This document shows positions 8,511 through 57,382 of a stretch of 64,000 nucleotides of DNA, in pieces. Position numbers and translations under genes: made by a program. The DNA is from Octopus vulgaris (lineage: Eukaryota). Under the pieces are notes generated by a model. The model did no database searches. It saw only the letters and a program-made list of their open reading frames with translations, and was not told the DNA's origin. The stretch lies in contig OX597815.1 of NCBI GenBank assembly GCA_951406725.2, positions 145,576,001-145,640,000 on the forward strand. The letters run 5' to 3'. Position 1 is the stretch's first letter. The number at the start of each line of letters is the position of its first letter.

Positions 8511-10321
8511 AATGTCGCTCATATTGACTTATGCAAGTTAATGAATGTACATGAGTAGCTACAGCATATACCACTTTCAAATTTACGACTTAGGATACTA
8601 TTATACTGCACCAATTTGGTATTAAGAGGCCCTAGTGTTCAAGTGTCTACCTAAAGAAATCATAACCTAAAAACGACTTATGGAAAAACAAAAGACGAAG
8701 GCAGGTGTATGAACGACAAGCAAGTGTATTAGTTTAATACTCGGGAAAATGAAAAAGTCTTTTACGTTTCGAGCCTACGCTCTTCAGCAGAAATGAATAG
8801 GAGGAAATAAACAGAGAGAGAGAGAGAGAGAGAGAGAAAGAGAGAGAGAGAGAGAGAGAGAGAGGGAGAGAGAGAGAGAGAGAGAGAGAAGGGTGTTAGT
8901 TTTCAGCGGTCCAACATGGCGAATATATATATATATATATATATATATACATATATATCAAACGTGCACAAAAGAGAGAAGCAGAAGATCGTAGACAAAA
9001 CACACATGTAAATATGTTCGTAGATACGCTCACTTATCCTACTCTGAGACATGGTAAGACAACGAGTAAGAGACGCTCACACGGTCTCACATAAACAGAT
9101 ACACGCCGATAATACAAAGACTTAAGAAATACATCGAAACGCATACACATACATAAATGTATACCATCCTAAACTTACAACCAGACACTCAAACACATAC
9201 TTGTACATACCTATACACAGATACATTCAGGCAATCACATTTTGATAGGAGGACAAAGAGGGGAATGAGAGAAAGAAATGCACATACGAGTATATATACA
9301 TACTAAGGAAGGTAAACATATTAAAGCATTTAATGTATTTTAAATACATACACAGACTACTCCCCCTACACATGAGTATTTCAATAATTCACCAAATTGA
9401 AATGTTAAAGTTTAAAAACGAAATTATTTTCCGTGTAATGAAATTTGGAAATTTAATTATTGGTTTCGTGCTAAGAAATTAGGTGATGGTATTTTTTTGT
9501 ATTGCACAGTGATGTCGATTCAATCAACTGCGTTATATAACTGGTATTTAAAAAAAAATATTCCAGAAGGATGAGGGGACGAGTGCATGCAGTGATGGTT
9601 GTGCTAAGCACAGTAGCCAATTGGCTCTCATTTGAGCTCAAGTATGACTATAATGAAGGAGTTGGATTCGCAAATAAATGCTTTCAAATTCCTTCCAACA
9701 AGAACAACAATTCAAATCCCGCCGGGGACAATAGCTGTTCGACATAGCTCTACAAGTCAGAGATGTTTGGATACTGTATGAGTATAGAACGGTTTTGTTG
9801 CTTTGCTTGCATTTCGAACAGTTTCATACCTACAGAGTTTATCTCGAACCAGGAGTGTCTTGTGAGTGGCGCTGCCAGGTCAGTAATTTCTGGAAGTTAT
9901 CCAAAGAAGTCACCGGCTTGAAAGACCTCCCAAAACAGACAAGAACGTCATTGTCCTTACCCATCGCTACTCCTCTGTATATTGCAAATGGGGAATTTCT
10001 ACCGGCCGACCACGTCCGAAGAGAGCGGTGAGTATCTGTCGACATTCCAAGTAGAAGGCGCCCGAAGAGAACAAAATCTTTGTAACATAGGTATGTAATG
10101 TATCCATGTTGCACACACACACACACACACACATACACTCACACACACACACACATACACACACACCACACACACACACACAAACACACACACATACGCA
10201 CGCACTGGGGTCGATTTGATCGATTGAACAAAGCGGTATTCCCCCACGGTCGCAGTTCAATGATTGAAACGAGTGAAAGAAAAAAAATATATCATATGAT
10301 ATAATATAACGGTTTCAAATT

Positions 10322-10692
10322 TTGCCACAAGGGCAGCTATTTTGGGGGAGGGGACCAGTCGATTACGTCGACCCCAGTACGCAACTGGTATTTGATTATC
10401 GACCCCAAAACTGACCTTGCTGGAATTTGAACACAGAAGTTGAAGACAGACGAAATACCTATTTCATTACCACCCACAAGGGGCTAAACACAGAGGGGAC
10501 AAACAAGGACAGACAAACGGATTAAGTCGATTATATCGACCCCAGTGCGTAACTGGTACTTTATTTATCGATGCCGAAATGATGAAGAGCAAAGTCGACC
10601 TTGGCGGAATTTGAACTCAGAACGTAACGGCAGACGAAATACCGCTAAGCATTTCGCCCGGCGTGCTAGCGTTTCTGCCAGCTCACCGCCTT
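10322..10692 (-). mobile_element. tRNA-derived SINE, family 1 (composite of two copies)
   Basis: Head GGCGGTGAGCTGGCAGAAACG, B-box GAGTTCAAATTCC and the central gtcgactttgc...gataaa...gtaccag domain. Lies ~60 nt from the M4 exon donor. Confidence 0.85.
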
Positions 10693-10751
10693 ATATGTGA
10701 TATAACATAACATAGCCTAGTCTAATGTAATATATGACATAATCTACTTAC

Positions 10752-10987
10752 CAAGCTCACTAATCCGCAGCAACCACATTTATCCCATTTCTGTAAAGTT
10801 TTCCGTCCAAATCGGAAATAGAAATGTTCAACTACCAATAGAATGCTGCCCAGTGCCATGCCGCAAGCCAATAAAATGAAAGCAGACGTAAAGTTGAGAA
10901 TTCCCAGAGAGTTGCTAGATTCACCAGTTTGGTCCCGCTTCTTACAGGCTCCTGCTAACCAGAATTTCTGGAGACGTTCCATTTCAC
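10752..10987 (-). CDS. Nmdar2: Coding exon of NMDA receptor subunit 2 (GluN2/Nmdar2-like): end of S2 ligand-binding domain, M4 helix, juxtamembrane Cys cluster
   Basis: Translates (G)EMERLQKFWLAGACKKRDQTGESSNSLGILNFTSAFILLACGMALGSILLVVEHFYFRFGRKTLQKWDKCGCCGLVSL, matching the invertebrate NR2 pattern G-[DE]-x-ERL...W..G.C...L...NF.SAF.LL..G...LL..EH.YF...CC.L.SL. Acceptor with polypyrimidine tract tttcttctacttttgtctttcAG (AG = plus 10988-10989) and donor TTG|gtaagt at 10751. 236 nt, phase 1 to phase 0. Confidence 0.93.
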
Positions 10988-11100
10988 CTGAAAGACAAAA
11001 GTAGAAGAAAGAAACATATTAAACAACAACAACAACAATGCTGTTCTATATTTAAGAGATGAGGAATTATGCACATTATTTTTCGATGTTATATGCCCAC

Positions 11101-11345
11101 GGGGTATATGGCGTAGTGGTTAAGAGCGCTGGCTACTAACCACAAGATTCCGAGTTCGATTCCAGGCAGTGACCTGAATTATAGTAATAATAATAATAAC
11201 ATCGAAAAATACTTTAGGAATGAAAACCCAGGTTCGAAATTTCCCCAAGACACCTGATGAAGGCTGGAGGGTATATCAGCCGAAACGTTGTGTTAACAAC
11301 AAACAAGATGAGGACAAATATCCGTCGAATGTAAATAATATAAAC
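11101..11345 (+). mobile_element. tRNA-headed element carrying a minimal hammerhead ribozyme motif in its 3' half
   Basis: A-box TGGCGTAGTGG (11109-11119), B-box GAGTTCGATTC (11152-11162), an (AAT)n linker, then a repeat body with an HHR at 11249-11294. The 3' body recurs at 22600-22875. Confidence 0.7.
11249..11294 (+). ncRNA. Minimal type-I hammerhead ribozyme motif
   Basis: GACAC-CUGAUGA-a-GGCUG(gaggguauau)CAGCC-GAAA-CG-UU-GUGUU: stem I GACAC/GUGUU, stem II GGCUG/CAGCC, palindromic ACGU helix III. Confidence 0.7.
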
Positions 11346-55021: not shown

Positions 55022-55665
55022 AAGTGGCTGTGTGGTAAGTAGCTTGTTTACAAACCACATGGTTCTGGGTTCAGTCCCACTGCGTAGCATTTTGGGCAAG
55101 TGTCTTCTACTATAGCCTCGGCTGACCAAAGTCTTGTGAGTACATTTGGTAGGCGGAAACTGAAAGAAGCCCATCGTATATATATATATATATATATATA
55201 TATATATATATATATATATATATATATATATATATATTCATTTAGAGATAGTAGGCCCCATCATCTCAGCATATAAAAAAGAATTCTTCTTTATATGGTG
55301 AGATGAAGGGGCCTACTATCTCTAAATTAAAATATATATTTCTTCATTGAGAATAATTTGAACCTCTGTTTTATTCCCTAAAAATAAATTTTAAATAATA
55401 TATATATATATATATATATATATATATACGTGTGTGTGTATGTGTGTTTACGTGTCTGTCTTTATCCACCCACCATCGCTTGACAACCGATGTTGGCGTG
55501 TTCACGTCCCCGTAACTTAGCGGTTCGGCAAAATAGACCGATAGAATAAGTACTAGGCTTACAAGAAATAAGTCCTGGGGTCGATTTGTTCGACCAAAGT
55601 CTCTGCTCCAGCATGGCTTCAGTCAAATGACAGAAGCAAATAGAAGAATAAAACAATAAAACAAT
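55022..55665 (+). mobile_element. SINE family 2, full length, interrupted in its (TA)n by a ~200-bp insert containing a hairpin
   Basis: Same head and tail as the 34766 copy. The insert at ~55235-55400 contains a ~45-bp-arm inverted repeat. Confidence 0.85.
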
Positions 55666-55832
55666 GAAACAATATATATATAGACACATACACTTATAAA
55701 ACCAGATTCACGGACACCTATTTATAAATGCTTATGTATCTATATTTGTATAAATAAACTTCCGCATCGGCGCAAATATAAATGAACACGTATATGTGCA
55801 AACAAATGTATATATATATATATATATATATA

Positions 55833-56412
55833 TATTGGGTCATTCCATAAATATTGCAGTTTTTCCAATTGCATGAACTAAAAGTTGGAGGGGGACGGGA
55901 TAAAATACCTGCATCAACTTGCAATAAAAGAAGGTCGCAAATTTTACCTTGTATTTATTCTTAGTTTTGGAGACTGCAGTTTTGCAGTTAGATTTTAGCA
56001 GTTATTTTTTCAAAGCTATAATGAAAGAGACAAAGGAGCATATTCGGCATATATTGCTTTATGGGTTCAATAAAGGCAACAACGCAACAGAAATTGCGGG
56101 GAATATTATTGCGGTATTTGGAGATTGGACAATAAGCGTAAGCCAGTAATCAATGGTAGTTCCAGAAATTCTGAGCCGGAAACTACAGCCTAGAAAACGA
56201 ACCTCGTCTAGGAAGATCTGTAGAGCTCGACGAGGACGTCCTGTAAAATCTAGTGGAACAAAATCCCATCGTAACTGTTGAGGAACATGCCATTGGAAAA
56301 CGTCAGCAAATTTGGTCAAGGGGTTCCTCACAAACCTTGAGAGTCTAATCACGCGTAGGGACTGAATGTATGCTCTTCTTTACTGTCAAGTCTCATGAAT
56401 GAACCTTTTTTG
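55833..56412 (+). mobile_element. Mariner 5' fragment (TIR plus HTH DNA-binding region)
   Basis: TATTGGGTCATTCCATAAAT start; KEHIRHILLYGFNKGNNATEIAGNIIAVFG...WFQKF...SLENEPRLGRSVELDEDVL. Confidence 0.82.
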
Positions 56413-56712
56413 CACTGGTAGGTTTCTCTCTCTGTTTATTTCCTCGTGTTCCTTTCTCTTGAAGAGTATGGGCTTGGAACGTAAAAGACTTTCTCACCTT
56501 CCCGAGCGTCAAACTAATACATCTGCATGTTGTTTATACACCTGATCTTCGACTTCTGTTTTCCCTCTGAATTACAACAATATATATATATATATATATA
56601 TATATATATATATATATATATATATATATACATATATGTATGTATGTATGTATGTATGTATGTATGTATGTATGTATGTATGTATGTATGTATGTATGTA
56701 TATATATATATA

Positions 56713-57382
56713 TATATATATATATATATATATCAAATGTGAGGATAAAATTATTTTCGAAAAAAAATATTTTTTCTCGAAAAAAATTTTATCAATGGCC
56801 AGCATATTAAAAAATACCTTTAACGGTTAAATTTATAAACAATTCATAAATGAGGAAAGGAAAAAATTTCTAATGCCGAATATGCCGAAAAATTGGACAT
56901 ATTGTCCATTAACCATATAATTTTTTCACAACACGCACGCTACTGAAAAAAGGTCGACAGAAATTTCTAAAAATTCCATTATTACCATATCGGACCGATT
57001 TCAGAGTTAGCTACTAAGAGCCCTCTCTTCGTCAGTGATACATGTGGCAAAAGAAATAAATGAGATACTTACTCATACCCATGTTGATAAGTAAAAGTAT
57101 AACTAGACACATAGACACAAACTATGCTTCTTCCATGGGTATGAGTAAGTATCTCATTTATTTCTTTTGCCACATGTATCACTGACGAAGAGAGGGCTTT
57201 TAGTAGCTAACTCTGAAATCGGTCCGATATGGTAATAATGGAATTTTTTAGAAATTTCTGTCGACCTTTTTTCGAGTAGCGTGCGTATTGTGAAAAAAAT
57301 TATATGGTTAATGGACAATATGTCCAATTTTTCGGCATATTTGGCATTAGAAATTTTTTTCCTTTGCCCTCATTTATGAATT
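56713..57382. repeat. Fold-back pLTR (arms ~245 bp); direct partial copy at 50068-50531
   Basis: 56840-57083 is the near-perfect reverse complement of 57133-57382. Both flanks are (TA)n. Confidence 0.9.
57177..57229 (+). ncRNA. Hammerhead motif; inverted copies at 56988-57040 (-) and 50441-50493 (-)
   Basis: UAUCA-CUGACGA-AGAG...CUCU-GAAA-UCGG-UC-CGAUA, with a GUC cleavage triplet. Confidence 0.65.

Follow-up and report, generated by a model that had tools for sequence, protein, structure and literature searches.

Minimal hammerhead ribozyme motifs in Penelope-like and associated repeat families within an NMDA receptor gene of Octopus vulgaris

Minimal hammerhead ribozymes are described in the pseudo-long-terminal repeats (pseudo-LTRs) of metazoan Penelope-like elements (PLEs) in passages of PMC4209133 (Cervera and de la Pena 2014), and share with the motifs analysed here a short helix I, an extra base before helix II and a palindromic helix III. 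The present motifs lie in a stretch of 64,000 nucleotides from Octopus vulgaris (G000:C2:145576001-145640000; hereafter, the window), which carries part of a GluN2-like NMDA receptor gene in an animal genome of 2.8 Gb that is rich in microsatellites. Further likenesses to those passages are the presence of many families per genome, mostly as single truncated copies, of opposite-strand pairs 100-700 bp apart and of a U3-A8 core variant. The main observation, minimal hammerheads in PLE ends, is an arrangement already known from that work. Its counts of 2,000-9,000 per genome, obtained with its own descriptor and not strictly comparable, stand against a far higher number here, about 29,700 exact matches for three patterns alone. 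Those passages contain neither a family with a fixed U at core position 6 (U6) nor a family headed by a tRNA-like sequence. Two of the octopus families go beyond the papers compared in these respects, namely family A, which is tRNA-headed and bears PLE insertion hallmarks, and family C2, which was amplified with U6.

Animal non-LTR retrozymes, as presented in parts of PMC7229834 and bioRxiv 10.64898/2026.07.22.740005, are non-coding, hammerhead-bearing elements proposed to be moved by PLEs. Family G and a tandem array described below fit that description. Retrozymes are defined there as tandem units of 170-400 nt with canonical hammerheads, whereas A is not tandem and the G unit has 504 nt and a minimal motif. 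The words 'tRNA' and 'promoter' do not occur in the bioRxiv text. The nearest known case to A is a tandem Schistosoma repeat resembling a short interspersed element (SINE). Among cephalopods, the relevant passages of an octopus repeat annotation (PMC13282606) list active PLEs and many unclassified SINEs with no mention of ribozymes, and 235 Rfam hammerheads are given for the giant squid in a passage of PMC6962438. Literature searches, with Repbase, Dfam, supplements and Lunse et al. 2017 outside their coverage, returned no octopus PLE hammerheads and no tRNA-headed PLE-dependent SINE.

The best explanation overall, to which we assign a probability of about 0.88, is that the motifs are minimal hammerheads situated close to the 3' ends of eight or more genome-wide families, four of which run into PLE coding frames, with A and G likely depending on the same machinery.

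Hammerhead motifs and their abundance

The original prediction listed 22 sites, and the arrangement of core, stem II and GAAA is present at the place and on the strand given in all 22, the coordinates of minus-strand sites being the low ends of the motifs. A tolerant scorer, designed after the sites had been seen, allows mismatches and rewards a palindromic helix III; it recovers 16 of the 22. The anticipated excess over shuffled sequence was found, with 14 window hits at a score of 15 or more against a mean of 0.73 (maximum 3) in 60 block dinucleotide shuffles. All 14 hits are listed sites, and the reversed window gives none. The sites missed are the family B copies at 15152 and 15492 (U4C and an extra base before G12), 19638 (a helix II insert of about 95 nt), the degraded pair 27899/28368 and 42205 (U16.1 lost). 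With a strict descriptor requiring unbroken stems only 11254 and 37266 pass (shuffles, 0), and most copies are therefore decayed or atypical. Two degraded copies, at 22622(-) and 56480(-), and a pair with U3-A8 cores, at 27199(-)/27253(+), add to those previously listed.

Repeats in the window were delimited by masked self-BLAST because general repeat finding was swamped by microsatellites. At least seven families had been proposed; at least eight can be distinguished, and the motifs sit near the 3' ends of these families, which are spread over the whole genome. An Rfam scan (E<=1) gave no hammerhead family among the 150 of 278 matches listed, which were microsatellite-driven matches to miRNA. 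Since copies within a family decay neutrally and the families do not align with one another, pairing was judged at the level of the family and not with a covariance model. At this level the core C3UGANGA9...G12AAA, the UH and stems I and II are found in A, C, D, F and H; B deviates by U4C and C2 by U6. Helix III, which did not enter the score used here, is self-complementary by Watson-Crick pairing in 8 of the 11 families seen at two or more loci (9/11 if G-U pairs are admitted), and has a single central unpaired base in the remaining two, both B-type; two of seven shuffled hits are symmetric. In cofolding runs made without a control, two copies are predicted to pair through helix III for B, D, F and H. 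The motifs are real and have the form of minimal type-I hammerheads.

The proposed density of one motif per roughly 3 kb holds for the window (22 hits per 100 kb) but not elsewhere, the next 160 kb of the gene having 10 per 100 kb (16 hits) and random stretches 9. The 40 kb on the other side contain two hits. Forty random 10-kb stretches gave 37 hits at a score of 15 or more (shuffles, 5.6) and 27 at 18 or more (shuffles, 1.2), with seven of the random-stretch hits coming from one tandem array. Exact patterns were matched genome-wide 2,287 times for A, 12,970 times for C2 and 14,430 times for the C group, with no match to any of the reversed controls. A crude extrapolation from 400 kb suggests roughly 135,000-180,000 motifs in the genome. 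The copies assigned to each family within the window are listed in Table 1.

Table 1. Repeat copies with hammerhead motifs, and the receptor exon, in window coordinates
Feature	Positions	Strand	Remarks
Family A inverted 3' tail	11043..11081	-	left end of insertion
Family A full-length copy	11091..11339	+	short 5' hairpin, tRNA-like head, AAT linker, intact hammerhead, 3' end
Family A copy, tRNA-like head with its boxes A and B	11102-11176	+	
Family A copy, hammerhead	11249-11294	+	predicted cut after 11289
Family A 5'-truncated pair	22588..22873		degraded inverted copy (-); forward copy with core 22756 (+) and tail
Family B head-to-head pair	15121..15582		cores 15207 (-), 15497 (+); U4C; 3' end of Hydra-type coding PLE
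Family B relative	44939..45039	+	core 44955
Family B 3' fragment	29077..29225		core absent; palindrome centred in helix III
Family C copy	16680..16800	+	core 16717; helix III mutated
Family C copy	42145..42310	+	core 42209; U16.1 lost
Family C2 copy	8678..8812	-	core 8790; this copy has C at position 6
Family C2 copy	24133..24283	-	core 24255; U at position 6
Family C2 copy	27456..27594	+	core 27493; U at position 6; 3' end of PLE with reverse transcriptase (RT) and GIY-YIG
Family C2 degraded copy	56423..56565	-	absent from the original prediction
Family D head-to-head pair	20344..20668		cores 20452 (-), 20558 (+)
Family D copy	38783..39084	+	inverted 5' part; core 38981; 3' end of PLE with RT and GIY-YIG remnants
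Motif with a long insert in helix II	19638..19765	+	core 19642
U3-A8 variant head-to-head pair	27058..27382		cores 27199 (-), 27253 (+); absent from the original prediction
Family E degraded head-to-head pair	27871..28480		cores ~27980 (-), 28371 (+)
Family F copy	37160..37405	+	intact hammerhead 37262-37306; young Hydra-type coding PLE
Family G copy	50069..50532	-	core 50488
Family G head-to-head pair	56734..57372		cores 57035 (-), 57182 (+); 504-nt non-coding unit
Family H head-to-head pair	53066..54134		cores 53175 (-), 54024 (+); non-coding for at least 880 nt upstream; no frame detected
GluN2-like NMDA receptor exon (end of S2, M4)	10752..10987	-	best PDB match NR2A, E 1e-7

Penelope-like coding frames and the changed core of C2

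Some 30 copies were followed upstream in seven families of the window (for G, four loci). Families B, C2, D and F run into frames for PLE RT and GIY-YIG endonuclease, and the suspected link to PLEs is borne out. The accompanying view of the elements as non-autonomous PLEs or retrozymes fails for these four, which are coding, and stands for the non-coding G and A. In B, 5/27 loci have a GIY-YIG frame some 0.8 kb upstream, and L403 contains RT. RT/GIY-YIG sequence was found for C2 in 5/29 upstream-selected loci (RVT_1, E 1.9e-6) and for D in all three of the long copies taken from 29, one of them interrupted by another PLE fragment. Copies of F are 97-100% identical; an RT frame follows straight after one hammerhead in L396, and L402 holds the endonuclease and a long AT-rich 3' part. 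An arrangement of F with separate RT and endonuclease units was rejected, as L396 and L402 overlap by 150 nt at 97%: F has a single frame and L396 carries an internal deletion. Pfam scores for the family frames are mostly below cut-off and the frames in the copies are broken or partial, the F RT having been recognised by its motifs and its similarity to other PLE frames in the genome. Judged from sequence, B, C2, D and F represent coding, endonuclease-containing (EN+) PLEs truncated from the 5' side, and they share the insertion features of such elements, namely 5' truncation, a pseudo-LTR or inverted 5' copy, and a (TA)n target.

The EN+ PLEs in the relevant parts of PMC8557442 (Craig et al. 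2021) likewise target (TA)n, leave inverted 5' copies and bear at one end a tail of 30-40 nt. The B and F partners share the Hydra-clade motifs given there (DKT, an RWK-like motif, a CxCx5C linker and no CCHH), and the C2 partner and the 781-aa element described next resemble the Neptune/Poseidon type in their CxxC linker and CCHH-type endonuclease; these clade names rest on motifs and not on a phylogeny with reference PLEs. The 3' untranslated part of F, about 3.3 kb in L402, is longer than the elements of less than 3 kb described there.

A GIY-YIG search located a young PLE in which an upstream frame overlaps an unbroken RT/GIY-YIG frame of 781 aa. Its copies (L026-L035) are about 99% identical, with direct terminal repeats that end at (TA)n and a U3-A8 hammerhead in the 3' repeat at 10/10 loci. 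Another family with a U3-A8 hammerhead occurs in L050, L054 and L024; in the first two it lies some 260 nt downstream of GIY-YIG ends of Hydra type. Two candidate coding associations of family G were rejected. The GIY-YIG remnant at 51043-51395 is separated from the G copy at 50488 by other repeats, and G lies downstream in 0/19 related loci; next to an intact PLE at L017/L027, a G-like pair proved to be nested, having inserted past the end of that element.

Core position 6 of C2 is U in 54/54 aligned copies, while the free position 7 varies, and genome-wide the C2 pattern occurs 12,970 times with U6 versus 128 times with A6. A natural A6C hammerhead of low activity is reported in the passages on core variants of PMC3088659, in which A6U was not found. 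Analysis of the core suggests that C2 spread with a hammerhead that is likely weak in cutting. This accords with the one reconstituted PLE, for which the relevant passages of PMC11167929 report that hammerhead core mutants still inserted, with insertion unaffected.

Family A and the non-coding tandem units

Family A is non-coding and dispersed, with a length of about 250-290 nt plus a variable linker. Long copies begin with a tRNA-like head in which the A and B boxes are intact; an AAT linker leads on to the hammerhead, and a 3' part of 55-90 nt follows. The head continues into the hammerhead body in 23/29 head-selected loci. Aligned to 20 genomic tRNA genes the head scores 61, with tRNA-Arg as the best match, against a maximum of 50 in shuffles (0/300 reach it). 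By the same alignment the head of the ordinary SINE S3 scores 60 (shuffle maximum 47), and one of three ordinary SINE heads failed. Same-strand tandems of A are absent from 29 body-selected loci. Four runs labelled with four other organisms have contigs that include 16,600-26,100 A-matching records per run, one record spanning head to 3' end. In the window, the full-length copy (11043-11339 with its inverted tail) lies about 55 nt from the splice acceptor of the receptor exon, its hammerhead antisense to the gene.

The insertion marks of A are PLE-like, unlike those of the three ordinary SINEs. Inversions facing 5' occur in 8/24 unselected and 29/64 selected clusters and none face 3', whereas the ordinary SINEs show 16/485 facing 5' and 15/485 facing 3' (P 3e-6 for the difference). 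A 36-nt tail, scored in 53 copies, is on the right only in 18, on the left only in 15, on both sides in none and on neither in 20. Target duplications of 10-15 nt flank 13/58 copies versus 6/505 controls. A tail that is optional and confined to one end matches the description in PMC8557442, and passages of PMC11167929 trace it to two internal RT start sites. Family A likely borrows Penelope machinery rather than the usual machinery of long interspersed elements (LINEs), and A and G, both short and non-coding, likely use PLE machinery alike.

Like A, the Schistosoma elements SM-alpha and Sj-alpha, as described in parts of PMC6765202, are short retroposons in which a polymerase-III-type promoter is followed by a hammerhead. 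They spread as tandem repeats cut into permuted monomers, unlike A, which is dispersed, starts at its tRNA head, retains an uncut hammerhead near its 3' end and carries PLE insertion marks. Octopus tRNA-derived SINEs, among them one named OK, were reportedly described by Ohshima and Okada in 1994. OR1 and OR2 are cited as CORE-SINEs in passages of PMC4824008, PMC4758252 and PMC3531059. The octopus SINEs OK, OR1 and OR2, compared by citation only, are similar to A in size and in having a tRNA-derived head, and one of them could be identical with it; A may be catalogued under another name.

The non-coding tandem unit with one hammerhead per unit that defines a retrozyme is found in family G and in an array elsewhere in the genome. 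G consists of a 504-nt non-coding unit, its first stem-I pair mismatched, with same-strand repeats about 500 nt apart and partial tandems at 7 loci. The array (L086:2100-4760; G000:C1 near 20.00 Mb) has a 359-nt unit with one compact hammerhead each, and its 7 motifs comprise five forward and two inverted head-to-head, flanked on both sides by (TA)n. It is a retrozyme-like array with PLE-type inversion. The forward part begins within helix III, and in the family B fragment at 29077-29157 the inversion centre also falls exactly in helix III. Such inversions possibly reflect template switching at paired helices; a general peak was not found.

Mechanism, competing explanations and the host gene

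Genomic copies are 5'-truncated, often inverted head to head and variably tailed, and lie beside (TA)n or in AT-rich DNA, where they carry target duplications. By analogy with other PLEs that have been studied, the RT-endonuclease would nick AT-rich DNA and copying would begin downstream of an uncut hammerhead, at either of two sites, which would make the tail optional. Reverse transcription would usually halt early, often leaving an inverted copy at the 5' end by fold-back. Only in tandem transcripts would two hammerheads pair through their self-complementary helix III and excise a unit-length RNA. Family A would have its RNA synthesised by RNA polymerase III from the tRNA head and copied uncut, with the hammerhead region acting chiefly as a portion of the end recognised by the PLE enzyme. 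The opposite-strand pairs are 5'-inversion products; their orientation implies one sense hammerhead per transcript, and they should therefore be unable to form a dimer in cis.

Several results weigh against the explanation preferred here. Minimum-energy folds of monomers often miss the hammerhead fold. Continuous coding frames were found neither for C (29 loci, reach 260 nt) nor for H (28 loci, two extended), and the 5' end was not reached in either. Close inversions are rare in C (0/16) and in C2 (1/37) although C2 is a coding PLE, so that the inversion rate differs by family. The 5' truncations are not concentrated at the cut site, with 2/190 starting exactly there, and the genomic copies show no trace of an insertion of cut RNA. 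Neither ARAGORN, applied to 15 A loci, nor Rfam, applied to L254, called the A head a tRNA, and the comparison set comprised only 20 tRNA genes of 7 amino-acid types. No coding partner for A was found, and a PLE sharing its 3' end was not seen. Finally, the window is 2-3 times denser in hits than the random sample, with a Poisson P of 0.003-0.013 that is naive, per-stretch counts being clumped (0 to 8) and the window having been picked for this trait.

Among other explanations, chance matches in AT-rich, repeat-rich DNA might be suspected, as tolerant scoring at the lower of the two thresholds yields about 1.4 false hits per 100 kb; this is refuted by the enrichment of about twenty-fold, reversed-pattern controls of zero, family-level pairing and the symmetry of the unscored helix III. 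Retention of the hammerheads by the host for cutting or regulating the NMDA-receptor pre-mRNA would be in keeping with their position in one 70.5-kb intron, about half of them on the sense strand, and with the local density just mentioned. We regard this as very improbable, since every site belongs to a repeat family of hundreds to thousands of copies, the stems or cores of most sites are broken, no strand preference is seen, and the next 160 kb of the gene are at genome-average density. That all families are non-autonomous PLE derivatives or retrozymes cycling through self-cleaved circular unit RNAs is suggested by the tandem units of G and of the L086 array, and by the lack of a frame for C or H. 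It is refuted for B, C2, D and F, which reach RT/GIY-YIG frames, and the absence of A tandems (0/29) and of copies beginning at the cut site makes it improbable as a general account.

For A itself we lean slightly towards a joint reading with C2, in which A is a polymerase-III, tRNA-headed SINE moved by PLE enzymes by way of a captured hammerhead end, and the U6 PLE lineage (about 13,000 exact copies) implies retention of the hammerhead fold for recognition by protein though its cutting is likely weak. A could conceivably be instead a tRNA-derived piece fused to a PLE end, and not a polymerase-III SINE, with PLE machinery multiplying the chimera from read-through transcripts of a small number of master loci. 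In most head-selected copies, 10-22 nt of inverted sequence precede tRNA +1; this stretch could represent a fixed 5' end, at a distance upstream too great for polymerase III. We consider such a fusion rather unlikely, because the A and B boxes are intact at tRNA spacing, the shared sequence ends at the head in all long copies, and the upstream inverted part ranges from about 10 nt to full length, as expected of a fold-back product.

The receptor exon was spotted by reading translations, Pfam on 150 open frames of the window having missed it. The nearest GluN2-like exon upstream lies 17.5 kb past the window end and joins in phase, so that the intron upstream of the M4 exon spans from 10988 to that point (70.5 kb); GluN2-like upstream exons are in the following stretches L067, L070 and L077. 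All hammerhead sites from 11249 to 57177 are inside this single intron, and 8759 lies past the donor of the M4 exon. The NMDA-receptor setting is incidental, and the motifs are not gene-specific. Other features of the window are a mariner-like transposase remnant (55928-56379; HTH_48, E 1.7e-11), transposase-like fragments as an inverted pair (25716-26331), a GC-rich minisatellite array with a 22-nt unit (2425-3076), and decayed PLE coding remnants at 1-721 (-; RT), 17193-17417 (+) and 51043-51395 (-; both GIY-YIG), for which no associated hammerhead end was identified.

For the receptor itself the hammerheads probably have no consequence: lone and opposite-strand intron copies are without a nearby sense partner and mostly mutated, and are thus predicted to be inert in the pre-mRNA. 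A genomic total of 135,000-180,000 would make decayed ribozymes a sizeable repeat class in this genome. C2, a prolific lineage with a changed core base, offers a natural test of what PLE hammerheads are for; the young PLE, whose RT frame is unbroken and whose hammerhead is of the U3-A8 type, offers a further one and is a candidate for in vitro work. If A is driven by PLEs, the classification of SINEs by LINE partner is incomplete, and A with its PLE would constitute a third SINE-type partnership beside SINE/LINE and that of terminal-repeat retrotransposons in miniature with LTR elements (TRIM/LTR). As a non-coding substrate of about 250 nt, A would then define the minimal RNA needed by a PLE enzyme.

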